Source: Reclinomonas americana ATCC 50394
Lineage: Eukaryota
Assembly: GCA_048213135.1 (NCBI GenBank)
Contig: PS015290.1
Span: forward strand, 1-38,220
Direction of reading: 5' to 3'
Length of the DNA: 38,220 nt
The notes under the pieces were generated by a model, which worked only from the letters and a program-made list of their open reading frames with translations, did not search any database and was not told the DNA's origin. Positions 3,597 to 36,398 of this stretch are shown piece after piece; position 1 is the stretch's first letter, and every line of letters begins with the position of its first letter. A program made the position numbers and the translations under genes.

Positions 3597-6500
3597 CTAG
3601 TCCACCGCCCTGTACTTGTGCATATTCGCGTGACAATCTCGGCAGTTGAACACGTATGAGTCAGGCATTCCATCCGTGGAGTTCAGCTCTTCCACGTTTT
3701 GTGCTGCGCGCAACAACAGGGATGAGCTGGTACACACATGTAAGACTTGCGTAAACAAACAAGCGCCGCTGTTACCGACGAAGCACGGGAAACAGCACCG
3801 CGAATACAAGAAGTCATTATCTCTGGAGAACTGCGTAAAATGTCAACAAGATCTCCCACAGCGACGGGTAAGAGCGACGAGCACAACGCACCGCGTACTT
3901 CTTGCGTATTCGGTGTCTCTGCCGCGTTTGATACGGGCTGTCGCCTGCATTGGCATAATCACAAGTACAATCAGAACAAAGTATCGCGATGAGTCGCAAT
4001 TATTGTACTCAACAGCAGCAAACGCAGTAGTCGTGCCAGGTAACTTCTCTCCCTTGCAACCAAGCCCTGCACATTGCCGCTCTTGTCAGTTCCCAGCATC
4101 ACACTCAGTCGCTTCACATGTAACATTTGCAACGAACTCAAGTTCTGCCTGTACGCGACAGGGACAGAATAATGTGGCAAGACAAAGCGCTTCGTATCTG
4201 AGGCAGGAAAACTGGCAGCCAGCATACTAAGAACATTGCACCCACCCAATTCTCATTCAGAAAATCCCGCAGCTCACCAGCCCAACGTCGAGATAATCGC
4301 GGCGAACGAAAGTAGGACCATTTGCGCCTTGAACCGAGTACACATCTGGCATCCCTCCTTTATGGACAAATTTCAACACATCCTGCCCTGCGCTTGTTTT
4401 AGACCAAAATGCGTTCACAAGCGATGCCTCAGTTGCAACTCACCGAGGAAACACGGATAGCAGAACCGCGACAGGAAGAAGTCCCTCGTGTTGTCGTTCT
4501 TCTCAAACTGCGATGTATGAACGGCTTACTCGACGAAAAACTGACTTATTATCGTTTGACATATCGATTCATACCCAGTTCTTTTCTCGATTACGGAACG
4601 ATTGTCGAATTTGGTACGCGCCGTCATCTGAGTGTTGTGTCGATTGGAATGAACAGAAAAAGCAGTCCTGTCTCTCTCTCTCTCACACACACACGCAACA
4701 GCAGCTGCAGCAGCAGCAGCTAAGCCAGTCATGCCACGATACATCCCTTTCTTCGACCCATGCCCTGAAATCAGAACGTGTGTCAAAACAACTTGGAGAC
4801 TGGAGCTTGCCGCACTTGTGCCACCTTGGACAAACCGAGTTTCAGCAAGCGGGAAACAAGGGGAAAAACAAGCACACATACACAGCTTGATCCTAGAGAA
4901 ACAGGAGAACTGTGCGCACAGCAAATATGAAGACATTCAGATTCGTGATGAACTTGCAAGACACAAGGTTGCATCGGCCTCTCACCAGGCCAGTCCCGCT
5001 TTCCATCACACTGCCATAGTGGAAGCGGCGCACAGGTGCCGGACTCGAGTGCACCCCAGCTGACACTGGCGCCTTCTCTGCAAGTCTGACATCCAACTGC
5101 AGTGAAAAATGAGAAACAAATACCGAAGCAGTAGTTGCGCGAAGAGCTTGAGGCAGAACTTCAGTAACCCGCTGCTGAGCAGCTCGCAGATCCTCCTACA
5201 ATCACCGCAAAGTAAGTTCTCTCAGCCTTAATCGCTCAAGACTCAACTCAGCTCGACACGAAATCAAAGACCTGTGTGGCCACCAACTGCGTCTGCAACT
5301 GGCGCATTCTGGATTCCGCGGCTGTCAGCATATTCTGTTTCTCTCGTGCGCCAGCCGCCAACTGCGTCTGCAATTGGCGCACGTTGGCTTCTGCAGTTGC
5401 CAACATGCTCTGCTTCTCCTGTGCTGAAGCCTCAGCTGCGGCGGCCCGAGCTTGGCACTGTTGCGCACTCAGTTTGACTTCTGTCACCTGGCCGCGTAAC
5501 CACTCATTTTCACGAATACACGCCTCCTGTCTCACTGGTGAGACAAAGATTTGAATGGCCGTGATGTCATAGACTACAGCACACACTGACCAGACGCATT
5601 TGCATCGTTGCCAACTGCATAATCTAGATTGTCAGAAAATCCAGATCACCACGGTGTATGAAGGAGCAAATGGGTTCATACCTGGGATCGAAGATCCTCA
5701 TTGCTGCAAACAAGCTGCACCCAACAACAGCAGCAAGTAAGTAAGAAACAATGCTCACAACTGCGACGGCTGCGCGCGAGGCACCTCCTGCCTGTAGTCG
5801 GCATGCAGCATGTTCTGCGAACAGGAGTGCGAGAGACAGTGAGGGCCTACAACCTCGCTTCCAGCAAATGATACGGAACTCGCAGTACTTCCGCAGCGGC
5901 CGAGTCGACCATGAGCCGACGTTCTCCTTCCTTGGATGCACAAACACAGATGAGGCCAGCTGTAAGTGCGTCGCTGCGAAGAGAGAATTGCGAACCTGCG
6001 GAACGCCATCTTCACTGGCCCACGCGCTTCGCACGTGAAGCAACCGCAAGAGAAGATCGACGGCAGATGGACGAGCCAGCGGGTTACCAGCCTGCGCAGT
6101 ATAAGCTCAGCACCAATATTTTATAAATGAAATCCTAGAGCCACACATCCACACGCAACCCAAGCGTCCTCCAGTGCCTGCTGCATGCCAGCTGGAATTG
6201 CATCCAGTGGGGGTCGACCACCCTGTGCAAGTCGCATTGCAACCTGCACACAGCGACCTGTCAGGCAACACAGCTCAGTGGACCGCCAGAGGAACACTCA
6301 CCGCCATGGGACCACGGTCGTGAATGTCAGAAAACGGCAGCTCAGCGCGGAACACCACCCACATGAGCATGGCCACGGAGAATATGTCACAGGAGGAGTC
6401 ATAATGCTGCAACAAAGAGGGCAAGTGAGTTTGGGAACGAGAGAAAGGGCCACATGTCACTCTGCACTCACCTCTCCACTTGTCACCTCCGGCGCCGTGT

Positions 6501-7584
6501 ATCTGCAGCTCGCCGAAGTGATTAGATCATCCGAGAGTGTCACACACACACACACACACGCGCGCACGCACGCACGCACGCACACACACAGTGAGACAGA
6601 GAGAGAAAGAGCGGATCGATCACATTCACTTCTTCTTCCTCTATCTGTCCTTAGTCAATCACTCTCTCGTGTACATACAAGAGACCGACGTGTGCGGTGA
6701 ACGCAACAAAGGACTGCCGACCCCAGCTGTCATTGTGATGGACACTGTCGACGTGCGAGCCAGGCCAAAATCCGCCAGCCGAAACTTGCCATTCTCATCC
6801 ACCAGCACGTTTTCAGGCTTGATGTCGCGATGAATGAAGCGGCCTCGGTGCAGGTTCACAAGCCCACGCATCACGGCAATGCAAATGTCCAAACGCTGAT
6901 GAGAATGCGGTCAACGCGCAGAACAACAGTCCGCTTGGGCACTCGCCCAACACGCACCTGCATTCGAGTCAACTGTTCCTTACGTACAAAGAGCACGTCA
7001 GCAAGTGAACCACCGGGGCAGTAATCCATAATGTAACCGGGTCCGTCGGGGGCATCCAACACCACACCGTACACCACGACAATGTTAGGATGCCTTCACG
7101 AAATGTCAGTCATCATCGCAAGCCGCGCAAAGCGTTTGGCCCTCGCACGCACCGCACTCGCATAGCCAACGACGCCTCCTCAAGCACCTTCTCCGTGACC
7201 GCACGCCGAGCGTCCGCATTCGCCGAGCGGAACAACTTGAGCGCAAACGACGTCGAGTGCTGCCACTCAATGCGGTACACCACCGCGCTCGCACCATCCC
7301 CGAGCCGCTCCCTGACTTGCACATCGGCAAACGGCACCTGTGGTGCGTCGTCCACAGCAGGCGACCGTTTCCGTTGCTGTTCCTTGACCGCACGGCGAAG
7401 GGGCGCCAGTGCCTCCAGCGTCTCCACCAGCGGCCTGTTGATTTCGAAGGCGTAATCGGCCGGAACCCGGCCCTGCATCTCAGCGCCGACAGCGTGGTAT
7501 ACACCGCGGCACACGGGGCACGATGGGGTGCGGTGGAGACGAGCGCACTCAGAGCACCTGGAGATTGACATAAGAGAGAAAAAA

Positions 7585-7683
<99 letters not shown>

Positions 7684-8685
7684 AGACGAGTAGAGAGAGA
7701 CGAGACGTAGACGAGTAGACGACTACGTAGAGTACGACGTACGACGTACGGTACGTAACGTCGTACGTACGGTACGTACGTANNNNNNNNNNNNNNNNNN
7801 NNNNNNNNNNNNNNNNNNNNNNNNNNNNNNNNNNNNNNNNNNNNNNNNNNNNNNNNNNNNNNNNNNNNNNNNNNNNNNNNNNNNNNNNNNNNNNNNNNNN
7901 NNNNNNNNNNNNNNNNNNNNNNNNNNNNNNNNNNNNNNNNNNNNNNNNNNNNNNNNNNNNNNNNNNNNNNNNNNNNNNNNNNNNNNNNNNNNNNNNNNNN
8001 NNNNNNNNNNNNNNNNNNNNNNNNNNNNNNNNNNNNNNNNNNNNNNNNNNNNNNNNNNNNNNNNNNNNNNNNNNNNNNNNNNNNNNNNNNNNNNNNNNNN
8101 NNNNNNNNNNNNNNNNNNNNNNNNNNNNNNNNNNNNNNNNNNNNNNNNNNNNNNNNNNNNNGTGCGTATGTGAGTTGAGTGCGCGCGTGTTCCGTGTTTC
8201 TTTGCTTTCTCACGCAAAAACGGAACTTTACAACTGCAGCCACATCCACCTGCAGCATCTGAGCAAACGGGCGGACAAAATGCAGCTCCGACAACAGCAA
8301 TCTTCGGAAGCAGCGGTTGCACTGTGGATAGAGATAAGCTGCTGTACCGTACATCCGCCTTGGCCGAGAGAGAGAGAGAGAGAGATGAGCGATCAGTGTA
8401 TCGTCTGCAAATGGCAAAGTAATGACACGGATCTGGAGTTCCATTTGCGATGAGGAGACTTCTCTCTCTTACTCACTCGCTCTCAGTTTCCCTTCTCTCT
8501 CCGCCACCACTGCGCAACATGGCATGCCCACGCCCACACGGCACAATCACCGGTGTGCACTCGGTCGGCTGATCATCGCGCGCGGGACCAAACACATCCA
8601 TGCACACTGGACAGCGCAGAACATCGTCGAGGACCGCAAATGGGTCGTCGTCTCCTCCACTGCCACTGCCACTGCCTCGACCCAT
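3597..8685 (-). CDS. Multi-exon RING finger / protein kinase (TKL-like) / coiled-coil / tandem PLAC8-like protein
   Basis: Exon 1 (8685-8519) plus exon 2 (from 7557) give a C3HC4 RING: CPVC...CGRGHAMCSEC...CPVC. Kinase motifs in later exons: LGDGASAVVY, ALK, RHPNIV, HRDIKPEN, DFG, GSPLYTAPE, DIFS, W-AGNPLARP. Coiled-coil exons at about 5690-5130. Two Cys-rich PLAC8-like repeats follow: GLFSCF..CMCACFSPC..QIRQSFR..DFFLSRFCYPCFLGQ and GCQFSCL..CLATLFCPC..QTRQRHR..DFLYSRCCFPCFVAQNVEEL. TAG at 3599-3597. The RING-kinase part is secure; the join to PLAC8 is inferred. Confidence 0.8.
7588..7678. repeat. (GA)n microsatellite at the 3' end of kinase intron 1
   Basis: Perfect GA run; it is the (CT)n pyrimidine tract on the transcribed strand. 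Confidence 0.97.
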
Positions 8686-8776
8686 CAATGACGAAGCAAA
8701 AGAGACGTAAAACGCGGACATGGGGGACGCGGACATACGTCATCGTACACTTCTTATTTTTTTGCATTGTAGCTCG

Positions 8777-11700
8777 CTACGCCACCCGCTTGCGTGCCGA
8801 CAGAACCAGCACAAACATGCCGAGGAGGCGCCAGAACACCATGATCACGAATAGCAAGATGAACGCCAGCCAGATGTTGTTCTGCGTACGGATCACGACA
8901 AGTAAGGCACATACAATACGGAAAAACGCTGATATCCACCACCACGCAACATCGACACCCAGCGTCTTGATCACGTCCTCTCCTGGAGAGGGGGCTGTCA
9001 GTCAGGCGAAGGACACATAAGGCATGACGGCGGTGATGCGAAACATACCAGTTCGATAGACGCACAGCTGACCAGGAACGCACTGGAAGACGACGCCGGA
9101 AAACTGCACAGCAAGAGAGAGGAATGGTGAGTGGCAATGAAAGGGAGGGAGAGCAAGGGAGAGGGCGAGGGAGAGAGAGAGAGAGGAGAGCACAGAGAAT
9201 GAGAGAGCGCGAGAGAGGGAGAGAGAGGGAGAGAGAGAGAGAGAGGAGAGACCCAGAAGAAAGAGTGTGAGAGATAAAGGCAGATCGAGTCTTCCATTGA
9301 CCAAGTGCAGTTTCGTGACATACAGGCAGACCGTGGCAAACTGCAAGCTGCAGCACTTCGCTGAAACCCACTCAAAAGCACAGAACATCCAGCACACAGG
9401 GACGCAGAGAAAGGGACAGACAGCGAACTCATGCACGATTCACGTGAAGAATCGTGCGCGAAACGCAGGAAATGAATAGCTATAGCTCTACCACATCGCC
9501 AACACCCAATCAAGCTGCCCAGAGAGAGGCACAGACGGAACTCTCACAACATTCGCCAATACGTACGAACACTCAGTCTTGTACGCTCTCACGTCGCCGA
9601 CACTCATACCACAAGGCCAAGAGCACGCAGGGAGAGAAAGTACACACAACGACCCCTCCTCCTTCACGCACCTCATTCGTCACCAAAATCTGGAACACGT
9701 ATCGCGGGAACGAAATGTACGAAATCCATCTCTGTGACAGCAATCAGCGAACGCACACACCACAGCAGAAACACTGTGTCTGTGAAGACGTACCAGGAAG
9801 GAAGGAATGTCGCTCTGCCACGACATAAATACTCAAGATATGAGCAATCGGGAGACTGAGCGAAAGTGTTTCAGATTCATACCAGCTGCACAAAGAAGCC
9901 TGAATGCGGTGGCAAGCACAACATGATCGGGAATATAAGCACATCAGCAGGCGAAAATCGGGCGAGTTATGCGCGACAAGACAAACCAGCAAACAAAATC
10001 TGCGGAGAACACAGCGATTAATGGTGAGTCAATCTCGTTCTGCTCTAACTCGTCTCGCTCTCTCCCTCCCTCCCTCCCTCCCTCCCTCTCTCCCTCCTTC
10101 CTTTACACGCAACTTGAATCAACGTCACCACCGGACCAAGCACCGTGCCAACGCCCGTGTTCGGCACCGCCGCCGAGATCATCATGCCCAACGCGTGCGA
10201 CACCAGCGCCGTCATAATCGCCGTGCAGATCGTGATCAAAAAGTTGGTGAAGCCGCTGTTCAAGTTCGTCAACCCTGTCACGCAGCAGTGAGGAGAGTGA
10301 GGAGTGATGCATCCCTCGGCGCTTGTCGATAGATACGCAACAGTACACGAGGCAAACGTAGATGATGATGGACACGATCTGCGTGTTGTGATCAGCGGAG
10401 AAGAAGGGAAAGGAGCTAAACGAGACAACGTACTTGAGAAGGCATGTCGGCAATGACACGAGCCGCTGCGCATATCGACCACCGGACAAAAAATGCAGAA
10501 GGATTACCGACAAGCACCACAGACAGAAAAAACAAGCAAATGCACGAACACCACACAAAGCACAAACGAACATGCGCACAAACAGCAGATTAACAGTCAC
10601 AGACACACGTACGAACAAGTGGGCACACACATGCACACAAGCAAACGAATGCAAGGTCACAACACAAAGCACAAACAAACGAGCGCACAAACAGCAGCAT
10701 CACAGTCACAGATACACATTGATTGACGACACAGATACGTGAACGTGAGCGCACGGACAGAGAAGTATGCGCACGTACGAACACATGTGAACACACACAC
10801 ATGGACCACGCACACACACGCATAGAAGCAAAATGAATGCGAGGACGCGACACAAAGCACAATCAACATGCGCACAAAACAGCAGATTCACAGTCACAGA
10901 CACACATTGATTGCACATACGTGAACGTGAGCGCATGGGCAGAGAAGCATGCACACGTACGCATTCACGGGAACACGCACACACACGCACACAAGCAAAC
11001 GAATGCACGGGTTGACACGACAAAAAGCACAAACAACATGCGCACAAACAGTAGATTCACAGTCACGGACACACGTACGAACACGTGGGAACACACACAT
11101 ATAGACCACGCACACACACGCACACAAGCAAACGAATACACGGTCACAACACAAAGCACAAACAAACGAGTGCACAAACAGCAGATTCACAGTCACAGAC
11201 ACACATTGATTGCACAGACACGTGAACGTGCATGCATGGACCAAGTGATACGTACACGAACGCATCCACGGGAACACGCACACACATATACCACGAAAAC
11301 ACACAATCAAGGGAGCACAATAACGAGGACAGAATACACGCACACAGAGACCACGCCCAAATCCATACACAAATTCCAGTTGACATGAGTTACATGTTTC
11401 CACCGCGCAGAAATCACACACAGGCAAACACAAATACAAGGTCACAAGGGAAATGAGTTTCATGTTTTCAACGCCACACGACACATGAAATGCACACACA
11501 GCGAACCGTAATATGGGCCAGTGCGGTAACTGCACACGCATCAACGTGAACAACACAATTCAAGCAGCCAAGCATCAACACACAGAACAAACCAGTTCGA
11601 CGCGCGTTCTCGCAAGAAAATCTCCTTCTCGGCAGGGAAGACTTGCACAACGCCGTTGAGCTGCACCACGAGAATCAGTGATCACCTAACAAGTCAACAA

Positions 11701-14700
11701 CAGGCTACACTGCAACACACCGTCGGCATGATGGACGCCTGCACCAGCGATGCACAGCGGTCAGTGGCGAACACAAAAAATGACGCACAATATTTCACCG
11801 CGCACCATCATGATCATGGAGAGCAGGCCGATGCGCGAACGCACAGATTGTTGCGAGTATGAGAGGCTGCAATGAACGAGTCAGCTTGGGAAATCTGCAA
11901 AGCACACAGAGGGTGAGAAAAGAGACAGAGCACAAAAAACAAACACGCTGACGGCTCACCTTGGCGACGGCGCACGCAAGCACGCAACCGCAGGAAGATG
12001 AGACCGATCTGAGAGTATTCCAAGCATTGTAACAGATTCAGTGACCGGTCGGGCTAATATGCACGAGCCAGACATACTCACCAGCACGCCCATGAACGAC
12101 GACTGGTGAGAGATGCACGATCAGTCAACAATACAGCAAGCGTCAGTTTCCATTGCATTGCCCACCTGGATGAGGCGGGTCCTAGTCACCGCTGTGAGAA
12201 TCAAACAACGCGCAAGTCAGCAAATCACTGGCAACAAGCGACGTCCGTATTCATGAGAGCGCGGGCGGCACGCAGAAAGTGACTCCAGCAACCACAATCG
12301 CAGGTGACACTCAGAAAGACAACACAATGACATGAACTACATCAGTACAAACTATCTTCATTCTGTCTCTCGCTTACCACTCACCTGGGTTTCGCGTCTG
12401 ATTCAAAAACGACCGCCACAAAATGACGGAGAACTACCCAACACAACACAATCACTGTGAGCTAGAAAAGAGGCACCACACCACCTTCACCAATACCCAC
12501 TCGCACCTGTCGGAACCAGCCTGGACGCATGGATGGCTCGTGAATCTCCGTAAACTGCGTAGGCCGAACCTCGGCGAGATCCTGCGTGGCCTTGGTGGCC
12601 ATGTCGGACTGCTCGTACGACACAACGACCTTGGCCAGGTCGGCATCCGGGTTTGGTGAGTCGTAGAACGTGAGTACGTCCACTGTGCACGAGAATGATG
12701 GAATGTGAGAGAGAGCGACTTGGACAGCGAGCACGCCAGACACGCAACAGAGGTGATCGGCAACATTCGTGCTGTTCGGAGAGAGTGGTGAGAACTACAA
12801 TTATACAATCGACACACGATACAAACGCAACTTGGGTGGAACTGGCATGTGCAGCGCGCGGTCAAAGTACTCGGCGGCACCCGACGCGGGACCCATGTAC
12901 ACCGTTCGTCCTTTAGCCAGGAGGAGAAGCTGTGCAGACGGGAACGAAGATTGTCAGGCACTTCAAAGAGATTGTGAAACGGTGGTGGGAAGAAACATAT
13001 CATCAAACAGGGCGTAGATGGCGGAGCGCGGCTGGTGAATCGTGCACATGACAGTACGTCCACTCAGTGCCAGCTCGTTCAACACGTGCATGATCTGGGC
13101 ACGCAAATCAGCACTGGACAGCGAGGGAGAAGGAAATGGAGAAGGTGGGAGGCAACACCTTGCTGGCAGTGGCGGCATCTGCGAATAGAGTGAGAAACAA
13201 TGGATCACGATGATGACACAACAAAGCATCGGCTCTCACCGAGACCACTGGAGAGTAGTTGCGGTTCCAGCAGACACGAGGTGAGGGGAGGGGAAGACGG
13301 AGATCAATTGTGCGCAGCTTCACCATACCTTGTTGGCTGTGCGTTGTAGCTCATGATTAGCAAGGATTAACAAACAAAGAGACTGAACAACACATACACA
13401 ACATGCACACCCACAGAGAGAAAAAAGTTTAAACAGAGAAGAGAGAGAGGAAGAGAGTAGCACACAAATACTCACTCACTCCTCACACACACACACACGC
13501 ACACACGCACCTCATCAAGAAACAGCACCGACGGGTTCGTCAGCAGTTCAATACCAATCGACACTCGTCGACGCTCACCGCCAGACACACTGTGAAATCG
13601 GCGGTGAGACAGCAACATGCATTCTGTAAGGGCGCAGTCACGCAACCCGCGAATGAGATTGTTGCCGATCTTGGTGTTCAGAGTGCCTTTCAAGCCGAGC
13701 TCGTTCACCACGCGGTCGATCTGCAAGCGGGGTGAGTGAGTCGAGGGGAAGAGAGGGAACGAGAGGGAGGGAGAGTGGGGAGAGAGGGAGGGAGAAGAGG
13801 GAGAAGAGGAGCTCGGTGGAAGATTTAGTGGAAATATGGGAGAGAGAGGGTGGAAGAGAGGGAGTGAGAAAGACAGAGGGGGGAGAAGAGGAAGAGCGCG
13901 AACACCGAATGCAGAGATAGAGAACCTGGCAAGATGGTGACAGCGAGAGAGAGAGAGAGAGAGAGAGTAACAGCAAGTGTGAGGGCGGTACAAGACAACG
14001 TGTCAGACAGTAAGGAAGAAAGGATTGAGGGAAGAGGAACTGAGCGCATTGATGTTGACAACATGGAACAAGAAAGGGGTACAAGCTGAGTGAGGAACGG
14101 AGAGAAAGGTGAGAGAGGAAAGCGGGGGAAAATCACTTGAACGAAAAAACGAACTGAGCAGAGTGCGAGAGGGTAGAACGAGAGAGAGCGCAAGAGGGCG
14201 AGAGTGCACGACAGAAAGGAGGAGTGAAGAGAGCTGAGCGCACAGAAAGGCTGACAATTGACAACATCAGGCTCTCACTCCCTCTTCTCTGCCACTCTCT
14301 CACTCTCTCACCCCTCTTCTCTGCCACTCTCTTTCCCTCTCTTCTCTTCTCTGCCACTCTGGAATGAGCGAAGGGGATGCAACGTAGAGAAAAGTGAGAG
14401 AGCAAAGCGAAAAAATCACTTGTGCAATGGAAACAACTGAGCAGAGTGCGGGAGAACGGAACGAGTGAGAGAGAGAGAGAGAGAGCATTCGCGCTCGGTG
14501 CACTCCTTATCACGAACCTGCTCTTGTTTCTCAGCCGCCGACATGTCACGCGGCAGCTTCAAGTTGGCATCTGAGCACACAAGTCAATAAAATCACAGAA
14601 GAAGCACACCACCAAACCACCGCTGCAACGCAACAGAATCTGCGCATCATCAGGGCAAGTACCAGAAGTCTTGTGTGTGAGTTAAAAAGCAACGCGATCG

Positions 14701-19700: not shown

Positions 19701-20588
19701 TTCTCTGTCCCTGTGTGTTTTTCTTAAGTCTGTCATTGCTTCTTCCTTTCACTCAATTGTCGCTGCCTCTGCCTCTCCTTCTTCCTCGAGCGCAAATCGT
19801 CTTCTCAAACACTTTGCACGCAATTTGTCACTGCTTCTGCCTCTCCCTCTCCCCACTTCGCACTCATTATCTTCTTTCCCTCCTTGCAGCACTCCACCGA
19901 CGCCGAGTTCTCGCATCACTGCTCGCGCTCGTGCGAAGTGATGGCACCTGTAGTCCCCAAGCCGAAGAAGGAGAAGAAGACGAAGGAGGAGCCGGCGGGC
20001 AAGAAGGGCAAGCAGGGCAAACAGGGCAAGCAGGGCAAGAAGGGACCCAAGGAGGCAGAGGAGAAGAAGGAGGAGCCAGTAGAGGCTGAGGAGAAGAAGG
20101 AAGAGGGAGAGGAGGGAGAGGTCAAGAAGGAGCCCAAGAAGTACTTGCTCATGGACCTCGCGATGGACGTCCACGGACACTACATTGTGGAGGCGCTCAT
20201 TCAGCGTGCTGCCGGCTTTGCCGACAAGTTTGGCACAGGAAAGAGTTGCGTCTTGACTTGTTTTCTCTTCTCTCTCTTCTGCTTGTACGCCTCCCAGTGC
20301 TTCGTGTTCTTCTTGTCATCGCGTCGGTTTGCTATAGATTCCTTTGTGGTTGTATTCGTCGCTGTTGACTCGAGTGTTGTTGTGCGCTACGCCAAGGCTC
20401 CTCGCTTGCAATCTCACTTTCTTTCTTATTGCATTACTCTTTCTGTCCACGCAGTCGCATTCCTTCTTCTTATTCTCTCGCTTCTGAAATCACTGTTTGC
20501 TTTCCACACTTCATTTTTATCTCCCCTCCCGTTTGTTTCTTTTCATCGTCTCAAATCCTGCTCACCAAGTTCTCTCTCTCTCTCTCTG

Positions 20589-20620
<32 letters not shown>

Positions 20621-23330
20621 ACACTTTCCTTTTACTTACCTGCTCCTTGCTTTTCTTTCCTCTCGCTTCTGCATCTTACGTTATTCTGGCTCGTGCAATT
20701 TTCGCGTTGCCCACGTGCCTCCATACTGCTCATCCTTCCCCTTCTCCCCCCTTCCCGTTCTCCGCCCCTTTCCCTTGCCACCCTTTCCTTCTCCACCCCT
20801 TCCCCTTCTCCACCCTTCCCCTTCTCCACCCTTTCCCTTCTCCACCCCTTCCCCTTCTCCACCCTTTCCCTTCTCCGCCCCTTCTTCCTTTTCTCCACCC
20901 CTTCCCCTTCTCCACCCCTTCCCCTTCCCCACCCCTTCCCCTTCCCCACCCCTTCCCCTTCTCCACCCTTTCCCTTCTCTCCACCCTTTCCCCTTCTCAC
21001 CCCTCCCGCTCCTCTGCAGGCGGCCCGCCACTGGACGACTGCCTTCTCGCCCTGCTGAGCCGCCTGCTGCGTGTCAAGTCGCTGGAGCAGCTGCTGATGG
21101 GCGTGGAGGACATGTCCATGCCGGCCGCTGACCATAGTGGCGTGTCAAAGGAAGGAGCCAAGGGAGCCAGCGCGCTGGTCTCCAAGGCTCGTAAGCGTGC
21201 GGCAGCCGAAGCGGCGAAGCACGGGTCGCTGGAGGAGATGGCGGCGGCCAGCAACCAGGCTCACGCACTGGCGTTCTCGGCAATTCCTTCGGTGCAGCCG
21301 TCGGCGGTCGGTGCGTTGAATGTGGCGCGACTGGCCTTTGCCGCCACCCGCCTGATGCCGATGAAGCAGCAGACGCGATGCCTGAAGGTGAGAGCCTCGC
21401 ACGGCAAGTAGACTGCGTTCTCGTTGCCTAACTCTTTGTGTGTGTCGCAGCATGTGGGTGCGGTGCTCGTCCCCGGCACCACTGGCCAGGAGCTGCCGGC
21501 GGCACTGACCACCAAGCTGATCCGCAACGAATACGGCCTGGCGCTGTACAACGAGCTGCTCAAGTTCCACCGCGACTGCGTGTGGGAGTTTTGGACGGCA
21601 TTCGAGAAGCTGGTCAACGCCGACAAGCTGGCCTCACTGTGCGTCACCGTGTGCGGTGGGCGTGTCGTGGAGACGCTGGTTACGCTGCGCTCGAAGAAGT
21701 CGCCAGTGGTGGCCAAGTTTGTGGAGATGCTCGGCGAGCGAGTGGTCGATGTGGCGCTGACGCGACCGGGTGCGCATGTGGTGGAGGTCATGTTTGAGGA
21801 GGCGACGTTGTATCAGAAGGTGATTATGGGGTGTTAGGAGAAGGGAGGGGGATTGGGGAAAGAGATGTTAGAAAAGGGATGTTAAAGAGAAGAGGGATTT
21901 GGGAAAGAAGGGCAGTGGCAAAGTCATTGTGTGAGTGCCGTTCCAAGACGTGAGTTGCCGAGTGTGTCTGTGTATCAACGAGTTAGAGAACACATGTAGC
22001 CAGTGTTTGTTATGTGCACTGCGCTGCGTGAGAATGTTGAGCAATAACCATTGCATTATTGAGAACAAGTGTGGCATTCTCTGTCAACAGAGAAGTGGTC
22101 AAGAGAAGAGAGCGTTGCGCTGAGCGAGAATGAAGAGGAGTGAGAGCGAGAGCTACAGTATCTGTCAGCAAAAGAAATAGCTTCTCGTCAATTCTAGCGC
22201 GAGTGACCTCGTTTTTATTCTACTGCATTACGAATCGCGTCATTGAATGAGCAAGAGAGAGAGAGAGAGAGAGAGAGAGAAGAAAAGAGATGCAGATCGC
22301 CATGTCACGCTCTCACTCACACGCACGCAACAAGAGAGGCGTACATGAGAGAACGAGGGGAGACAAGCACGCTCGCATGAGAGCACACTCAGCGGTGTGC
22401 TTGCGTGTGTGTGTGCGAAAAACATCGCTGACTCTCCTTCCCCTTCTTCTCTCCTTCTCCCTTAATCCTCCTTCTCCCTGTAATCTCCTTTCCTTCCGCT
22501 CTCCTTCCCCTTCGATCCGCCTTCTTCCTCTACTCCCCCTTCCCCCCTCGTCCCTCTCTCACCCTCTCCTTCCCCACTCACCTCCCTTCTCCTTTCCGCA
22601 GCGCACCCTCATGCAACTGCTGTCCCCGCGCGCGGACCAAATCCGCCAAAACCGCTACGGTCGCTTCGTCTTCCGCAACCTGCACCTCGACGAGTACCGC
22701 CGTCAGCCCGAAGTGTGGGAGCAACGGCAGGCCAAGGTCGTCAAGCAGGCCAAGGTGTACGAGGAGATTTTCGGTGCGGGGTCACTGGGCCGTGCCGCGA
22801 CCTCTTCCACGGCCGCCGCCGCCGATGCCCACATGACCAATGGCGATCACGAGGGGGAGGCGGAGGCGGAGGCAGAGGACGAGATGGAGGTGGACGGTGA
22901 CAAGAAGAAGAAGAAGAGCAAGAAGGAGAAGAAGGACAAGAGCAAGAAGGAGGCGGAGAAGAAGCACAAGGAGGAGGTGGCGGCGGCTCCGATGGAGGAA
23001 GAAGAGGTCGAGGACGAGGAGCCGGCTGACAAGAAGAAGAAGAAGAAGAAGGAAAAGAGGGAGAAGAAGGACAGCAAGGGACACAGTGCCGAGCGCGTGG
23101 TGGAGCTGATGAGCAGCAGTGCTTCAGCCGTGGCCGCGGGCCAGAAGCGCTCTCGCAAGGAGTCTGCCGACACGGACGAGGTGCATGCGGAGGCGAACGG
23201 GCACATGGAGACGGATGGTGGTGACGACGACGACGCGCCCAAGAAGAAGTCGAAGAAGCCGAAGAAGCCGTCGAAGAAGCGTCGCAAGGGCGCCGATGGT
23301 GATGAGGTGGAGGAGGAGGAGGATGAATGA
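16800..23330 (+). CDS. NOP9: Nucleolar protein 9 (Pumilio/PUF-repeat 18S rRNA maturation factor)
   Basis: Phase-compatible exons 16800-17025, 17425-17523, 18416-18575, 18651-19128, 19890-20244, 21020-21387, 21451-21819, 22602-23330. PUF-type motifs NRYASHLLEKL, SGSHFLQ, HGHYIVE, GGRVVE, PGAHVVE. NOP9-like ends GIVDMETQGY and NRYGRFVFRNLHLDEYRRQPEVW. K/E-rich tail. Confidence 0.85.
17625..18275. repeat. Degenerate repeats inside NOP9 intron 2
   Basis: A ~115 bp block (gcgcagtgaattga.ggctatttctttcttgtattctgcatc...ttctacgttc) occurs at ~17657 and ~18118. The short unit tctgcat..tgtcttgcttctcgtg recurs several times. Confidence 0.85.
20735..21000. repeat. C/T minisatellite (cttctccacccct(t)tccc)n in a NOP9 intron
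   Basis: 16-17 bp units tandemly repeated just upstream of the 21019 acceptor. Confidence 0.9.
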
Positions 23331-23406
23331 GTGAAGCAAGATGCCAGCGTGGTCGTTTTATCCCCATACAGACAGACTCATCGGCACATGGTACTGTCTG
23401 TCCACA

Positions 23407-26400
23407 TTAGGTACTGCTGCCGACCAAGAAGCGCTCGAGGAACATGATGACGGCATTCTGGTAAAAGTCGCGGTTTCGCTTCTGCTCGGAGGCAGCGCTG
23501 AGTCAGAGCGTGTAGAAGCAAGCCTTGAAGAGGACATACACACCTTGCGGAATCCGTGTCCCTGCGACGCACAGCAGAAATGGGAATCAGCTGGTGCAAC
23601 TAACTCATGAGACGCCTGCTAGTCCACTCACCTCATCCTTGGCCATGAGGTACCACACGCTACGGCCGTTCTCGCGCACTGCCGTGACAATCTGCTCGCT
23701 CTCTGTGACGGGCACACGCGGATCGTTGAGTCCCTGCACCACGAACAGCGGCCGATCGATGCGACTGGCATGCGTCGACGGTGAGATGGAGAGCAGAAAC
23801 TCGCGCATCTCCGGATCGCGCTCGTCGCCGTACTTGACACGGCGCAAGTCGCGCCGGTCATCGTGCGTGTTCTCCAAGAAGGTGACAAAGTTGCTGATGC
23901 CCACAATATCGATGCCGCAACGCAGCCGCGGACCGAAATGGATGAGCGAGGCCAGCACCATGTAGCTGTTGTGTGCGCGCATGTAAGAGATGGGATGGAG
24001 GGGAGCTCGCGAGGGAGGGAGGGATGAGAAGACTCACCCGCCGTAGGAGCCACCCCACACGGCCACGCGGGAGGCGTCGAGCTCCGGCTGCTGACCGACC
24101 CAGTCGAGCAGCGCGCCAATGTCGAGCACCGAGTTTTCGCGCAGCCGTCCGTTGTCGAGCTGCACGAACCTGCACGAGGACGAAAGGGGGGGGATGACTA
24201 TGCGTGGTAAAGGTATCATACGACAAAGGAGGCGGCGCACTTTTTGCCGTATCCATCTGAACCGCGGACGTTGGGGTCGAGAATGGCCACGTTCATCTCG
24301 CGCAGCAGATACTGGTACGACGGCGAGAATGTCGGCAGCGATTGGCCCTCCTGAGAAGCGGGAAAGAGTGTCGGGAGAGTGAGAGAAGTGAGTGCATTGT
24401 TCCACTCACAGATGAACAATGAGAAAGGGGTTTCTCTCGCGTGTGCGTAGCTGGGAACACACAAAACACGATAGTGGTGGACTATGACTCAAATGACCAT
24501 CTGTCTCTCTCGTTGCACAATGAAAGGCTCCTAACTGGAGAGTACTAACTCTCAACCAACTCAAATGTCCAACTGTCTCTCGTTGCACAATGAAAGGCTC
24601 CGACTACTAACTCTCAACCAACTCAAATGTCCATCGGTCTCTCGATGCACAATGAAAGGCTCCTAACTGGAGACTGCTAACTCTCAACCAACTCAAATGT
24701 CCAACTGTCTCTCGTTGCACAATGAAAGGCTCCGACTACTAACTCTCAACCAACTCAAATGTCCATCTGCCTCAAAGGCTCCTAATTGGAGACTGCACTT
24801 TCAACCAACTCAAATGTCCAACTGTCTCTCGTTGCACAATTAAAGGCTCCGAACTGGAGACTGCTAACTCTCAACCGATGAAGATCAGATCGACTGCTGT
24901 GCTCATTTCAACTCACGAAGTGCTTGTGTGCGACAGAGGGTGCTCCCTAAGTTCCACTCCATGTTCCCTTCCCCTATCTCACACTTACCGGTCCACCATG
25001 AATGTGGATGACCACCGGGTACTTGTTGCCGACTGTCGATACAAGTCAGTCAGAAACATTATGCTGCCACACACTCAGTCAGCACGCAACACTTCTCCAA
25101 CGGCGGCCGATTGGGCTTGTAGTAGAACGCGTGAATGCGCAGGTCGTCAAACGATGCAAAATCGATCAGGGTGGGCTCGACAAAATCGTCAGTGGGGAGG
25201 CCGCCCACTTCGCTTTGCGTCCAGCGGGTAACCTACGTGATGGGAAGGGTGGGAAGTGAGGGGCAGGAAGGGAGAGGAGGGGGGAGGAAGGAAGGAGGAA
25301 GGGAGGAAGGAGGGAAGGGGGGAAGGGGAAGTCGGAAAGGGAGGAAGACGGAAGGGAGGAAGACGGAAGGGAGGCAGGGAAAGGAGACGACGTAAGCGGG
25401 AACTGAATGAGGAAGATGGAAGGGGGAAGACGGAAGGGGGAAGAGTGAAAAGGGTGAAGACGGAAGAGGGGAAAAGGGAAGAGGGGGAGGAGTGAGGGGG
25501 GAAGACGGTGAGGGGGGAGACGGAGGGCGGTAACACTTCACTTCTTTCCTCTTTCGCTTGTTCATATGTCGTCGTGCATTCCATGCCTCGCCCTTCTGTT
25601 CCATTCTCGTTACCTTTGCTCTTCTCTCCTGCTCTTCTCTTTCTGCTTTCCGTTTGCCCTTCTCCCTTCCCTTTCCCTGTTCCTCCTTCCCTTCTCTTCC
25701 TTTTTCGCTTTCCCGTCCCCGTTTTCTCCATGCCTCCTTCCTCTGTCCTTTCTAGATCTCTCTTCCTTTCTCTCTCGCTTGCGCTTTCCCTTCCTCTTCC
25801 TCTCTCTCTCCCTCTCTCTCTCCCTTCCCTCACGCACCTCCTTTGTGCGAACGTCCATGCTGAACACATCACCGGGCGTCTTGGGCGAGTTGAGATAGAA
25901 GCCAATGTCGGTGCCAGTCGGGTTCCAGTCGATGCTATGCGATGCACTCGATCAGAGACAGAGGTGGCGACAGGGGAGGTGAGGAAGCGACGCACCCGCC
26001 CACATAGCCGACGGTCGGCAGCGGTTGTGCCACGTACTCGTCGGTGGCAGTGAACAGCATGTACAGCTGCGTGGAGTGGTACGTTAACATAAAGCGGTGG
26101 AGAGGGCAGAGGGCAGTAGAGATGAAGACGTACCTTGTAGATACCGCCCTCGTTGACAGTGAAGGCCGCCAGCTCGCCAGTGGGGCTCACCTATGAGACG
26201 AGTCAACAACAACGCACAGCAAGCATGCACATGTGTTCAAGTGCCGTACCTCAAACTCCTCCACACCCCACTCCAAGTCCTCGGTGATGCACTTGTACTC
26301 GTGCGACTCGGTGTTGTACGAAAAGAGTTTCTTGAAATCGGAGCCCTCGTCTGTGCGCACCAGGGGTGTGAATAATCGGCACCCCCTGCACACCGCCTTC

Positions 26401-27862
26401 CTCACTCACCCGACACCACGTACAGCTTGTTCGGCGACGGTGCAAAGCGCACAACACCAAACGACACTGGCGAATCGATGCCCTGCGAAAACGAGAAGGA
26501 GGAGGATGAGAAACGCAATGGCTGCCTTGCGGTCTGGCCAGACATCTCACCCTGGTCTTCACGGGCAGCAGGTCGTCGACGCTGCTTACCGGCGGCACCT
26601 CCTGCACCGCCAGCTGGCGAATGTTGCGCAGGCGGTACACGTACGACTCGGAGACGGACACGTAGCGCTTGATCAGCAGCTCCGAGTCGTCGGGGCTGAA
26701 TTCGGTGGGGAAGAAGAAGCCGGTGGCTTCGAAGACCACGCGCGGCAGCGAGAAGGTGCGGGTGGTGACGTCGAAGGTGCAGATGACCACGTCGCGGTCG
26801 CGGCCGTTGCGCTGCGTGCTGTGGGGGGAGGAAGGAGAAGGGAAGAGGAGAGGGGGAAGAGGAGAGGGGGGAAGAGGAGAGGGAGGAGGCAAAGGGGTGG
26901 AGGAGAAGGGAAGAGGGGGTGTGAGGGAGAGGGGGAGGAGGAGAAGGGGAAGAGGAGAAGGGGAAGAGGAGACAAAAGGAAACAGACAGCAAAAGGAAGA
27001 GCAGATAAGTACAATGGCGCGGATAATTGGTAAAGAAAGACGAAAGGACGACTCGAAAGGTGGACGCAACGAGAAGAACGCCAGCATGGACCCATCGTGC
27101 GACCACTTGGCGCCCGAGTTCTTGCTCTTGCCGTCTGTCAGCAGCGTGTGCGTGGCCTTCTCGAAATCGAAAAAGTACAACTGCCGATGGAGCCTAGTAA
27201 GACATCAAGCACACATTGCGTGCAGAAAGAGAAGAGACTTGCCTGGAACTGCTCATCGCCTCCCGTGTCCTTCGCATACACGAAACCGCGCGCATCGCTG
27301 CGCGGGTAATACGAGCCACCTCCCACAGCATCCTCAAAGAAGGTCAGCTGCGTGCGACAGCCGAGAGGGCGGTGCACGTAGTGGATCTGTGGAAATGGAG
27401 AGATTGGTGAGACGAAAGAAAAGGCGAGTTGTCCACGGCACACAAATGAACAAACTTGCGAAGTGTCGGCGAATCGCGTGGCAATCAGGATGCCGCCCTT
27501 GTCGCTGCAAGGAGAAGCGAACCAGTGAGTAAAAGAGGGAGAGGGAGTTGCGGAATGATCTTTTCAGTCAAGGAAGCAGAGCAGCGCGAGAGAAAGAGGC
27601 ACAAGGCGTGATTCTTCAGAGTCAATCTGTCTGTCAACGAGGCACGCCACTGCGCTCGGGAGAGATGGGAGAGAGAGATAGAAAAGCACAATGCTCACAC
27701 TTGCATCCTCGAGCGACAACCAGAGAGAGAAAGGGAAACACCGACTGGGTGACAGAGAGTCAGGGAGACAAGAAGAGAAAGAGACATACAGACTCTCAGA
27801 GCAAGATAATCGAACAATCTCTCCTTCCTCTGCGTGCAGTCTCCAGGGCTTCTCTGAGACTC

Positions 27863-27905
<43 letters not shown>

Positions 27906-28599
27906 GTCGTCGTCTCGTACGTCGTCGTCGTTCGTCCGTACCGTACCTTCCTCTCCTCTCTACTCTCCTCGTCTCTCGTCTCCTCCTCCTCCGTCTCCTC
28001 TCTCTCTCTNNNNNNNNNNNNNNNNNNNNNNNNNNNNNNNNNNNNNNNNNNNNNNNNNNNNNNNNNNNNNNNNNNNNNNNNNNNNNNNNNNNNNNNNNNN
28101 NNNNNNNNNNNNNNNNNNNNNNNNNNNNNNNNNNNNNNNNNNNNNNNNNNNNNNNNNNNNNNNNNNNNNNNNNNNNNNNNNNNNNNNNNNNNNNNNNNNN
28201 NNNNNNNNNNNNNNNNNNNNNNNNNNNNNNNNNNNNNNNNNNNNNNNNNNNNNNNNNNNNNNNNNNNNNNNNNNNNNNNNNNNNNNNNNNNNNNNNNNNN
28301 NNNNNNNNNNNNNNNNNNNNNNNNNNNNNNNNNNNNNNNNNNNNNNNNNNNNNNNNNNNNNNNNNNNNNNNNNNNNNNNNNNNNNNNNNNNNNNNNNNNN
28401 NNNNNNNNNNNNNNNNNNNNNNNNNNNNNNNNNNNNNNNNNNNNNNNNNNNNNNNNNNNNNNNNNNNNNNNNNNNNNNNNNNNNNNNNNNNNNNNNNNNN
28501 NNNNNNNNNNNNNNNNNNNNNNNNNNNNNNNNNNNNNNNNNNNNNNNNNNNNNNNNNNNNNNNNNNNNNNNNNNNNNNNNNNNNNNNNNNNNNNNNNNN

Positions 28600-28656
<57 letters not shown>

Positions 28657-28709
28657 TATCTACTACTCTCTACTCTCTCTCTTCTCTCTCGTCCTCGTCT
28701 CGTCTCCTC

Positions 28710-28771
<62 letters not shown>

Positions 28772-29320
28772 TCCCTCTCTCTCTCAACAGTTGTCTCGAC
28801 TGCAGTTGTCTCGTCAGCCTCTGTCTTTGTCTCTCTCTCTCTCATCAGTTGTCTCGTTGTCAATCAGTCTCTGTCTCTCTCAAGCACTCTCTCTTGTTGC
28901 ACACTGTCAATCAGTCTCTCTCTTTAGCTCTCTCTCTTGCTCTCTCTCTCGTTGTCAATCACTCTCTGTCTCTCTCACTCTCTTGCTCTCACACTTCCAA
29001 TTAGTCCCTTTCTCTGTCTCTCTCAATCTCTCTCTCTCTCTCTCTCCCTCTCCCTCATTCCTTTTGTCAGTTTGCACAATCAATCAATCAATCACTCTTT
29101 CCCTCTCTTCCCCCCTCTCTCCTCCCTTCCCCTCCCCCTTTCCCCCCTTTCCCCTCTTCATACTCAACGAAGGATCCCATCCACTCAGCGACGCACTGCG
29201 CGTGTTCTGATACTGCAGAGTGCGATCTTTGATCTCCACTGGACAGTGTGGAATGCACTCAATGACCAGTGCGCCCTCTTCCCGGCGATTGACTGCGTGT
29301 GCGTCAGAGGCAGAGGCCAT
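23407..29320 (-). CDS. S9 family (prolyl oligopeptidase / acylaminoacyl-peptidase-like) serine peptidase, bacterial-like
   Basis: Exon 1 (29320-29169) encodes QYQNTRSASLSGWDP. Later exons encode ILIATRFADTSQ, RTQLTFFED, KDTGGDEQFQ, TRWTQSEVGGL, IHGGPEGQ, PNVRGSDGYG, nucleophile motif GGSYGG (~24040), QGLNDPRVPVTESEQ (Asp) and DE|GHGFRK (His). TAA at 23409-23407. Confidence 0.95.
24487..24876. repeat. Minisatellite of about 6 units (55-72 bp) inside S9 intron 24351-24988
   Basis: actcaaatg starts at 24487, 24559, 24621, 24691, 24753 and 24808; unit body tctctcgttgcacaatgaaaggctcc(taactggaga)...ctaactctcaacca. Confidence 0.95.
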
Positions 29321-29763: not shown

Positions 29764-31931
29764 TCATGTCTCCAGGTAGACCGCGGTCGCCACCAGCTTT
29801 TGCAGACGGTCGATTTGTGCGACGGATTCGGCCTCCACCACCACAGGTCGCGGGTACAGCATGCCGGTGCCGGCATTGACTTCCCACCCGTAGGCGCCAG
29901 TGGCGACTGCCGAGTGCAGGGGTGAGCAAAGTAGAAGAAGAAGAATAGGGGAGGGGCAAACACGCAACATTGAGCGCAGTCGTCCAGTGAGAGACCCGTC
30001 ATGGCGGCGCAGTCGGCCAATCGGATGCTCGAGTACGCTTGACCGACCAGGCGGAAGAGGCGCACGCGAAGTGCCTCTGTGCATGCAAGGTGAGAGGATG
30101 TCGAAACAAAGAGAGCGACACGGGGGAGGCGACTGACCGAGGACGTGAGCCACGTACTGCCCGATAATGTCGCTCCACGCCGAGTTTTTCAGCAGGTCGA
30201 ATGCGGCGGCGAATTGTCTGCAAGCGAGAGAGACACAGATGAGGGAGAGGCAAAGGGGAGATGTCCATTGTGGTCCTCACAGACCGCTTCCACAACGCCT
30301 TGCCCACGTTCCATGCGAGTCGCAGCTGTGCGCTCGATTCCTTGATGCTGGGGTGGGTGCGCTTCCAGAGGAACTTGGCGCTTGGGCTGGGGGTGGCGAA
30401 GGGAAGAAGGGAGGAGTGGGAAAGGAGAAGAGGAGAGAGGGGAAGGGAGACAGCACAAAGAGCATGGAGCGCTCTGAAGCAAGAGAAAAGAGCGCTCCTG
30501 CTTCCCCACAGGGGCACTTAGGGAGAGAGAAAGAGAGTTTGCTCGCAACACCTTGTCAAAGAAAAGAAAAAGAGCAGGAGTGCTCTTCCACTCTCATTGG
30601 GCAGAGGATGTGCACATGAGAGAGAACGAAGAGGGGGAGCAGTAGAGAAAAAGGTGGACCACGAACAGAGGATGTGCAGGAGAGAGACAGAGAGAGAGAG
30701 AGAGGAGAGAGAGCTTCATCCGCACGCTCAATCCTCTTCGTCTTCCTCTTCTTCTTCTTCTTCTTCTTCTTGTTGTTGTTCTTCTTCTTCTTGTTGTTCT
30801 TCTTCTTCTTCTTGTTGTTCTTCTTCTTCTTCTTGTTGTTGTTCTTCTTCTTCTTGTTGTTCTTCTTCTTCTTGTTGTTGTTGTTGTTGTTGTTGGTGTT
30901 CTTCTTCTTCTTCTTGTTCTTCTTCTTCTTCTTGTTCTTCTTCTTCTTCTTGTTGTTCTTCCTCTTCTTGTTGTTGTTGTCGTTGTTGTTCCTCTTCTTC
31001 TTCTTCTTCTCTTCTTCTCCTCCCTCTCCTCTCTCTCCTCTCTCCTCCTCCCCTCTCCTTCCCNNNNNNNNNNNNNNNNNNNNCAAATGTGAGAGAGAGA
31101 GAGACACACACAAAGAGAGAGAGAGAGAGGAGAGAGGAGAGAGAAGAGAAGAGAGAGGAAAAGATAGTGACTAAGTTTACACAATTCCTCTCTCTTGTCT
31201 CTCTCTTTCTCACAGAGAGTGAATGCATTGCACGCAAGAGGAGAGTGTGTGAGAGAGAACATGTGTGTGTGAGAGAGAAAGAGAGTGTGTGAGAGAGAGT
31301 GAGAGTGTGACTATGTTTACACATTTGCTCTCTCTCTCTTGTCTCTCTTCTCTCCACTCTCTCAAACACACAGAGAGTCTTACACACGCATTCATGAGGG
31401 CGTGTGAGAGAGAGTGTGTGTGTGTGTGTGAGTGAAAGAGAGAGAGAGTGCCACAGTAAGACTAAGTTTACACATTTTCTCCTCTTGTCTCTCTCTCTCT
31501 CTCATGTCTATATTTCACTCACACTCACACACACTGTCTGCAATACACACATGCACACAAGAGAGTGAGTGAATGAGAGAGAGTGAATGTGTGACAAAAG
31601 TAACAACTCATTCTCCTCACACACACTCTCTCACACACGCTCTCTCTCTCTCACACACACACACACACTCTCTCTCTCACTCTCTCTCTCTCCCTCTCTC
31701 ACTGCNNNNNNNNNNNNNNNNNNNNNNNNNNNNNNNNNNNNNNNNNNNNNNNNNNNNNNNNNNNNNNNNNNNNNNNNNNNNNNNNNNNNNNNNNNNNNNN
31801 NNNNNNNNNNNNNNNNNNNNNNNNNNNNNNNNNNNNNNNNNNGCGCGTGACATGTCCGCAACTCTCGTCTCTTGCGCCTCACACTCCCGCACAACTCCAT
31901 CAAAGTCTCCACTAATCAACAACTGCTCCAT
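29764..31931 (-). CDS. CSN8: COP9 signalosome complex subunit 8 (PCI domain)
   Basis: Exon 1 MEQLLISGDFDGVVRECEAQE, then AKFLWKRTHPSIK..AWNVGKALWKR, QFAAAFDLLKNSAWS, LFRLVGQAYSSI, YGWEVN and C-terminal RLQKLVATAVYLET*. These resemble remembered CSN8 motifs (CENQE, ARYLWKRIP, LVSQAYTSI, LARLTDYVAFLE). One exon probably lies in gap 31706-31842. Confidence 0.88.
30735..31010. repeat. Mixed (TTC)n/(TTG)n trinucleotide repeat in a CSN8 intron
   Basis: Continuous ttc/ttg runs; source of spurious poly-K/N, poly-E/Q and poly-F/L ORFs. Confidence 0.97.

Positions 31932-34953: not shown

Positions 34954-34994
<41 letters not shown>

Positions 34995-36357: not shown

Positions 36358-36398
<41 letters not shown>

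Follow-up and report, generated by a model that had tools for sequence, protein, structure and literature searches.

A near-invariant GTTGCGT donor class in five intron-containing genes of a Reclinomonas americana scaffold, and its possible recognition by U1 in a shifted register

The DNA analysed here, referred to below as the window, comprises positions 1 to 38,220 of contig PS015290.1 of Reclinomonas americana ATCC 50394 (assembly GCA_048213135.1), a draft eukaryotic scaffold of 38 kb with nine N gaps that carries a row of WD40 genes in addition to five genes with introns. The five genes encode an ABCG protein, an S9 peptidase, a RING-kinase protein with PLAC8-like modules, a NOP9-like protein and a CSN8-like protein, and the subject of this work is a 5' splice site, GTTGCGT or rarely GTTGAGT, that recurs among their introns. 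Intron boundaries were inferred from the genomic sequence by means of homology, paralogy, phase and reading frame. On this basis, the sites of this class, taken as a whole, are very likely to be real donors, cut in front of the first GT of the heptamer. They are best explained as belonging to ordinary-length U2-type GT-AG introns that carry a distinct, almost invariant donor, /GUUGCGU or rarely /GUUGAGU, and that account for about a quarter of the donors in this region.

A direct check of the scaffold found the motif at all 20 coordinates given in the initial annotation, each on the strand stated there. The sixteen sites listed as GTTGCG read GTTGCGT, except for the one at 8518, which reads GTTGCGC; the sites at 4013 and 29168 read GTTGAGT, the one at 8950 reads GTTGCGT, and the one at 31862 reads GTTGCGG with an N gap beyond it. 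One further GTTGCGT donor that had not been listed was found at 10341 on the minus strand, bringing the class to 21 members, 17 of which are identical over the entire heptamer. The window contains 18 copies of GTTGCGT against 4.75 expected (standard deviation 2.2, maximum 12), a number reached by none of 100 shuffles. Likewise, the hexamer GTTGCG is present in 39 copies against 20.6 expected, and none of 100 shuffles reached 39. No enrichment of GTTGAGT was found in the window (5 copies against 7.2 expected). Of the GTTGCGT copies, 17/18 run in the sense direction of a gene, each of them at an inferred donor; the remaining copy is antisense. None of the heptamers varying at +3, that is GTAGCGT (1 copy), GTCGCGT (8 copies) and GTGGCGT (6 copies), is located at a curated donor, and neither is any of the 12 copies of GTTGTGT in the window. 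Among the introns that could be anchored by homology, 15 of 58 (26%) begin with GTTG[CA]G, with shares of 9/35 in the ABCG gene, 3/16 in the S9 gene and 3/7 in the RING-kinase gene.

The 15 anchored class introns differ from the 43 other anchored introns in their exon context. A G at exon position -1 is found in 3/15 class donors versus 38/43 others (20% versus 88%; p 2e-6), a T at this position in 7/15 versus 0/43 (p 2e-5), and AG at the exon end in 0/15 versus 18/43 (p 0.002); as the initial annotation had observed, exon-end AG is absent at all 18 of its main sites. Phase 0 is also less common in the class (4/15 versus 30/43; p 0.006). The ordinary donors, which include one GC-AG intron, are varied at +3 and +4 (GTGAGT 8, GTGCGT 7, GTGTGT 3, GTTTGT 3, GTACGT 3, and others). 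The 7-mer at +1 to +7 of the class differs at a single position from the ordinary string G GUGCGU at -1 to +6, and relative to ordinary donors the downstream G and T are displaced by one base into the intron, as had been pointed out before. However, insertion of one T into the ordinary donor set, as described in the initial annotation, does not by itself give this class, because the base at +5 shows a C:A ratio of 19:2 across the 21 members, versus C at +4 in 10/26 ordinary donors with G at +3 (p 3e-4). The median intron length is 69 nt for the class and 66 nt for other introns. The 15 anchored class introns are all of the form GT..CAG with flanking exons that join in frame, and 14/15 contain a branch-like YTNAY 6-23 nt upstream of the 3' end.

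Three of the genes (ABCG, S9 peptidase and RING-kinase) were rebuilt against intron-free or distant homologues using a custom protein-to-DNA spliced aligner, in which GT and GC donors are scored alike and AG acceptors are obligatory. At a stiffer intron penalty the aligner passed over microexons, and where ABCG is poorly conserved it introduced GC introns that are spurious; for this reason the ABCG gene was curated by hand and each of its junctions was tested separately; ABCG introns called at this penalty were listed only when called by at least 4 of 40 homologues. In the junction test, the model was compared with a cut 3 nt downstream by affine-gap local alignment of 44 residues around the junction, and in the junction scan every frame-keeping shift of donor and acceptor was scored. 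Homology speaks clearly for the GT cut, as against the GC cut 3 nt downstream, at 9 sites; at 5 sites the GT cut has moderate or paralogy-based support, and at 6 sites, including 6159, it is backed by phase or reading frame only. In five unrelated genes, homology and phase agree with the initial annotation that introns of this class are real, frequent and of the GT-AG type. The second claim of that annotation, that a GC donor 3 nt downstream is excluded, applies in a narrower form: such a donor is disfavoured wherever homology can decide, but neither the spacing of the RING finger nor the evidence at 6159 excludes it.

The ABCG gene (8780-16393, minus strand) provides the largest set. In its curated model, 688 codons are interrupted by 35 introns, which is about one intron per 59 nt of coding sequence, with microexons of 5, 8, 8 and 13 nt (14635-14639, 13329-13336, 13240-13247 and 9987-9999) and a Walker B region divided among three tiny exons. 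The best homologue of the assembled 688-aa model aligned over residues 47-655 with an E value of 2.6e-98. In the case of the intron 13590..13646 (phase 2), which interrupts the ABC signature motif, the GT cut was favoured in 120/120 junction tests and the intron was called by 39/40 spliced alignments. The introns 12683..12748 (phase 1) and 11867..11988 (phase 2) were also favoured as GT over the GC cut 3 nt downstream in 120/120 tests each, with calls by 27/40 and 26/40 alignments, respectively, and the former ranked 1/82 in the junction scan. The same unanimous result (120/120) was obtained for 14571..14634 (phase 1), which adjoins the 5-nt microexon; it was found by 2/3 homologues at a low intron penalty and skipped by 33/40 at the higher one. 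For 15467..15966 (phase 0), GT was favoured by 118/120, with GC favoured by none and 2 ties; this intron was called by 1/3 homologues at low penalty, and its calls at the stiffer penalty fell under the listing level. The intron 10000..10113 (phase 0), which is followed by the 13-nt microexon, gave GT 115/120 and GC 2, and its model ranked 9/85 in the scan. With affine gaps, 12772..12831 (phase 2) gave GT 104/120, GC 12 and 4 ties, and its model ranked 1/86. The additional intron 10275..10341 (phase 1) gave GT 92/120, GC 8 and 20 ties; its split codon restores a conserved W, and it ranked 2/79, tied with a slid variant lacking GT. When the intron penalty was low, the introns at 12831 and 10341 were each called by one or two of the three homologues. 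Finally, 8882..8950 (phase 0) is the last intron of the gene and completes the model up to the stop codon; the initial annotation regarded it as a probable further case, and it belongs to the ABCG gene and not to the kinase gene. The scans confirmed the net intron length, with equal-shift variants at the top, at 7/8 ABCG sites and at 27070 and 6707 of the S9 and kinase genes, and within the confirmed length class the modelled placement alone yields GT..AG at all of these sites. At 10113, 29168, 25090 and 6159, the top variants alter the net intron length. No close relative or transcript was found when a metagenome collection was scanned with an ABCG-specific exon. It should also be noted that for another ABCG intron, at 12930-12980, a satisfactory canonical solution is lacking: it has GTTTCA as its sole phase-compatible donor, and that the model contains about six surplus residues there compared with homologues.

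The S9 peptidase gene (23400-29263, minus strand) has 16 introns as determined from 25 homologues. A bacterial protein is 50% identical to its 626-aa model over residues 1-622. Among relatives of the catalytic exon, the 120 listed at the top, which reach 76% identity, are all prokaryotic or metagenomic in appearance. The gene is a candidate for a gene of bacterial origin with later intron gain, in which three introns of the GTTG[CA]GT class would be among the gains. The first of these, 27505..29168 (GTTGAGT, phase 2), spans an N gap and was called by 24/25 homologues, with a scan score of 109.7 for the model versus 105.6 for the cut 3 nt downstream; the initial annotation had given the donor correctly, and we can now add that it opens the first intron of the S9 gene. 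The intron 26819..27070 (GTTGCGT, phase 2) was likewise called by 24/25, with scan scores of 107.5 versus 97.0 for the GC cut 3 nt downstream. The third is 25033..25090 (GTTGCGT, phase 1), for which 7/25 alignments chose the modelled cut. A 6-nt exon suggested by one homologue was dropped, as 24/25 homologues give one long intron instead. The S9 gene also contains a GC-AG intron, starting with GCAAGT, at 27181-27242 (minus strand), which was called by 24/25 homologues.

In the RING-kinase gene, which is also encoded on the minus strand, the GTTGCGT intron 6503..6707 (phase 2) is located ahead of the APE motif, within the activation segment of the kinase. The aligner chose it for 17/31 kinases, and the scan scored GT versus the GC cut 3 nt downstream at 68.4 versus 66.1 and at 46.5 versus 42.2. 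The 3' end of this gene (3650-4770) encodes two tandem cysteine-rich PLAC8-like modules with the same exon-intron layout; the family name is based on cysteine motifs and is tentative, and single exons of the modules gave no match when compared with Pfam. In the first module, the phase of the GTTGCGT intron 4628..4699 (phase 1) fits no acceptor but that at 4628, and the exon that starts there has a paralogue in the second module. In the second module, the intron 3945..4013 (phase 1) starts with GTTGAGT, and because an in-frame TGA sits within this heptamer, no canonical donor other than the GT at +1 is available. The same donor class is found at the same position and in the same phase in both paralogous modules, directly before the homologous exon. 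The remainder of these two introns is unrelated between the modules, and the introns that follow them bear different ordinary donors (GTATGA versus GTGCGT). Two other class introns have been drawn in this gene. The GTTGCGT intron 6092..6159 (phase 0) is located near the kinase C-lobe and is indicated by phase and reading frame. The other, 7558..8518 (GTTGCGC, phase 2), splits the RING finger and spans an N gap, and both of its flanking exons give weak Pfam matches to RING. The initial annotation had argued that the spacing of the RING motif excludes a GC donor at 8518, an argument that we do not uphold, as the RING consensus permits 2-3 residues there.

The remaining members are located in the NOP9-like and CSN8-like genes. 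In the NOP9-like gene (plus strand), they are the GTTGCGT introns 18576..18650 (phase 2) and 20245..21019 (phase 1). A Pfam PUF_NOP9 match starts immediately past the acceptor of the former. An exhaustive search for NOP9 homologues gave 2 weak matches, of which only one (P0361) crosses the 18576 junction, and this protein is one residue shorter across it than the NOP9-like model. In the CSN8-like gene (minus strand), the GTTGCGT intron 29907..29968 (phase 1) follows an exon that matches CSN8 (PDB, E 0.034; Pfam, E 8e-5), and the exon downstream of it gave no PDB match. A possible donor, GTTGCGG at 31856..31862, is located after the first coding exon of this gene.

Several observations weigh against this view of the class. 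Firstly, all donor statistics are drawn from one 38-kb window, and the homologues behind the vote counts are mutually related, so that the counts are not independent. Secondly, some junctions were also cut elsewhere. With linear gap costs, 31/40 alignments took the GC at +4 of 12831, and at 10113 a competing GTAAAG donor 7 nt downstream was taken by 13/40 alignments. At 25090, the GT at +6 was taken with a different acceptor by 17/25 alignments; the donor first proposed there is preferred in the affine scan (92.2 for the model, 89.0 for the GC cut 3 nt downstream and 87.8 for GT at +6) but not by most alignments. At 6159, the homologue scan leans slightly to GC (27.9 for GT versus 28.7, and 31.0 versus 32.3). 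Thirdly, the introns at 13646, 12748 and 8950 have lengths divisible by three and contain no stop codon, so that the reading frame alone is no proof of them; at 8950, moreover, homologue length varies around the junction and GT and GC are not separated, the support being that of phase. Phase is the only guide to the junctions at 8518, 18576 and 29968, as are phase and reading frame at 20245, and an N gap 20 nt beyond 31862 leaves its acceptor out of sight.

How might such a donor be recognized? Pairing energies were modelled with assumed 5' ends of the snRNAs, for which the canonical U1 end was taken as printed in PMC4856993. For the best duplex in any register, canonical U1 gave a mean of -1.65 kcal/mol for the class versus -7.22 kcal/mol for the other donors. 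Replacing the ACUUAC of U1 by ACGUAC in the model changed the class mean from -1.65 to -5.5 kcal/mol, with a pair between the G at +6 and C4 in 18/20 members, and a U1 modelled as the exact complement gave -11.1 kcal/mol. In the reading that we favour, U1 snRNA would read GUUGCGU one base further into the intron. The intron G at +1 would then fill the place held by the exon G at -1 in ordinary donors, and U at +3, G at +4, G at +6 and U at +7 would pair where U at +2, G at +3, G at +5 and U at +6 normally do, whereas cleavage would stay in front of the GU and be fixed later by U6 and U5. As one pair would be lost at +2, all the remaining positions would have to fit, which would account for the invariance of the heptamer. 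Because the pairing with canonical U1 is so weak, a U1 with a G at position 5, or else a dedicated variant, is predicted, and the preference for C at +5 would correspond to such a G, as reported for Mastigamoeba. We infer the register, the handover to U6 and U5 and the nature of U1 from these patterns, and on balance we lean towards a shifted-register reading by U1 of a distinct donor class. Two findings fit this reading poorly. The exon position -1 would face U10 of U1, and A would be expected there, yet it is T that is enriched (7/15). In addition, canonical U1 is predicted to pair hardly at all with the class, so that the mechanism hinges on the predicted change in U1. An Rfam scan of the window gave no snRNA at the gathering score; at E values up to 1 there were 54 sub-threshold matches in the window, none of them to a spliceosomal snRNA, and their positions coincide with simple repeats.

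Shifted-register and bulge 5' splice sites in human genes were reportedly described by Roca and Krainer in 2009 and by Roca et al. in 2012. According to Tan et al. 2016 (PMC4856993), human cells have been proven to use both the shifted register and the bulge +2/+3 registers; a +2/+3 bulge was predicted at 68 and a +3 bulge at 51 of 201,541 human sites, and the validated non-canonical registers together make up 1.5%. These human sites resemble the window class in having a GU donor with the consensus bases one position late, pairing with U1 out of register (as proposed here for the class) and cleavage at the GU. They differ from it in being scattered, heterogeneous and very rare, whereas the window class consists of one exact heptamer at about 26% of donors. 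The window class, unlike the human sites described there, also avoids G at the exon end and prefers C where canonical U1 wants A.

An explanation that competes with the shifted register is a second, dedicated U1 or U1-like snRNA complementary to GUUGCGU, with standard U1 reading the ordinary class. It agrees with the near-invariance of the heptamer at all seven positions (17/21), as opposed to the degenerate +3 and +4 of ordinary donors, with C being favoured at +5 and with the energy modelled for an exact complement, and it would need no contribution from the exon side. Physarum has been reported, in 10.1101/2022.06.08.495308, to have standard and modified U1 variants. On the other hand, the likeness between the heptamer and the -1 to +6 string of ordinary donors is more simply seen as a shift of the same U1, and no such variant was reported in the literature searched, and we consider this explanation unlikely. 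In more general terms, two donor specificities of the major spliceosome would coexist, one being G/GUNNGU read by standard U1 and the other the exact /GUUGCGU read by a U1 variant, or by another dedicated reader, without help from the exon, a proposal to which we give a similarly small chance. If it were true, about a quarter of the introns would depend on a second reader, including recent gains in a gene of bacterial origin.

The initial annotation had offered a bulged register as one option. In this view, canonical U1 would read these sites with the extra U, at +2 or +3, bulged and the machinery unchanged. The motif does equal GUGCGU plus one U, and this register is among those demonstrated in human cells in the source cited above. 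However, in a bulged duplex the exon G at -1 would still pair with C9 of U1 and should persist, but it falls from 88% to 20%; the shifted register is favoured over the bulge because this exon-end G is lost. An A at +5 would also pair better than the C that prevails there at 19:2, the duplex with canonical U1 averages only -1.65 kcal/mol, and the human counts of 68 and 51 sites are those of rare exceptions. We hold this option to be very unlikely.

It is also conceivable that the invariant motif reflects shared ancestry from a mobile, introner-like element and implies no special recognition. Introner elements likewise give rise to many introns with a common terminal motif in intron-dense genomes, and three observations would agree with such an origin of the class, namely an exon context that differs from the usual AG/G, the unusual phases (phase 0 in 4/15 versus 30/43) and the presence of three class introns in the bacterial-looking S9 gene, hence as gains. 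However, the class introns, unlike those elements, share no similarity beyond the heptamer: the normalised score was 1.74 within the class, 1.66 between the class and other introns and 1.61 among the others. For the first two of these, the Mann-Whitney p was 0.03, with a maximum within the class (5.29) below the maximum between class and others (5.63), and the highest pair scores are probably due to low-complexity repeats. There is no target-site duplication either, as 0-1 nt are common to exon end and intron end in 15/15 cases, and the class has been retained across the old internal duplication of the PLAC8-like modules while the remainder of the introns diverged. This makes common descent from an introner a highly improbable explanation.

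That the cuts are mis-called, and that the true donors are the GC at +4, the GT at +6 or a nearby site, would agree with the competing cuts at 25090, 12831, 10113 and 6159 and with the three stop-free introns described above, but the affine tests prefer the GT at +1 at 8/8 tested ABCG sites, the 3 S9 sites and 6707 (though not at 6159), the site at 4013 has a stop codon within the motif, and 17/18 copies of the 7-mer are located at drawable phase-compatible GT..AG introns, which is not expected by chance, so that we see hardly any room for this explanation. Two further candidates were rejected. U12-type introns likewise provide a second, tightly constrained donor motif beside the major class, but the class has neither a U12 donor nor a U12 branch site ([AG]TATCC starts 0/61 introns, and TCCTTRAY occurs in 0/18 class introns and 0/43 others), and its branch regions and 3' ends are like those of other introns. 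A systematic assembly error inserting a T was rejected because GTGCGT donors coexist with the class in the same genes, and bases internal to introns leave the exon frames untouched.

If the shifted-register reading is correct, its closest parallels as to U1 may be found in amoebae. According to 10.1101/2022.06.08.495308, the donor GUUUGU of Entamoeba has co-evolved with a U1 carrying ACAAAC, and the donor GUGCGC of Mastigamoeba with a U1 carrying ACGUAC. In these organisms, as described there, U1 has changed in keeping with an atypical donor base, U at +3 or C at +4, which is a precedent for the U1 predicted here; each of them has a single altered consensus, read in the normal register, whereas the window would have two classes and two registers in the same genes. 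Right-handed and left-handed classes of 5' splice sites that are tuned by LUC7 paralogues have also been described (10.1101/2022.12.07.519539). These classes contrast intron-side with exon-side matches within one genome, and the GTTGCGT class would be an extreme intron-side case; the LUC7 classes mark the two extremes of a continuous range and share one register, unlike what is proposed for the window. A search of the literature by motif, which covered a limited set, gave no splicing report for GTTGCGT or GTTGAGT. Nor did the literature searched describe a second main donor class that consists of a single exact heptamer out of register.

If the pattern extends genome-wide, an out-of-register 5' splice site would be a main class in this organism, used by about 1 in 4 introns, compared with well below 1% of sites in human. 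Such a natural system could be used to study how the point of cleavage is set by pairing at the exon end, the register of U1 and the transfer to U6 and U5, as well as whether snRNAs co-evolve with donor classes and how new introns acquire their signals. A practical consequence is that gene finders trained on only one donor matrix would overlook or misplace roughly every fourth intron, together with the adjoining microexons of 5 to 13 nt.

Some minor features of the window may be added. The ordinary register is also lax at +3, where T or C can be found with the G at +5 and the T at +6 kept; donors of this kind are those at 27455, 11592 and 9986 (GTTTGT) and at 14517 and 11506 (GTTCG), and the CSN8-like gene has GTCTGT and GTCAGT near 30283 and 30134. 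When both classes are pooled, T is present at +3 in about a third of the anchored donors. At 13158 and 30549 (minus strand), there are donor-like sequences aag/GTGTTGC in which GTTGC begins two bases inside the intron; of the two, 13158 is a donor supported by homology, and it lacks G at +5.

At the right end of the window (32200-38220, plus strand), there are at least 4 closely similar WD40-repeat genes with long unbroken reading frames, next to genes that are intron-dense, and several of them are interrupted by N gaps. A metagenome scan with one of these WD40 genes gave distant relatives only, with at most 53% identity. The long introns at 15470-15960, 20700-21000 and 25240-25830 are full of CT-rich or GA-rich simple repeats in short tandem units, and N gaps adjoin these repeats.

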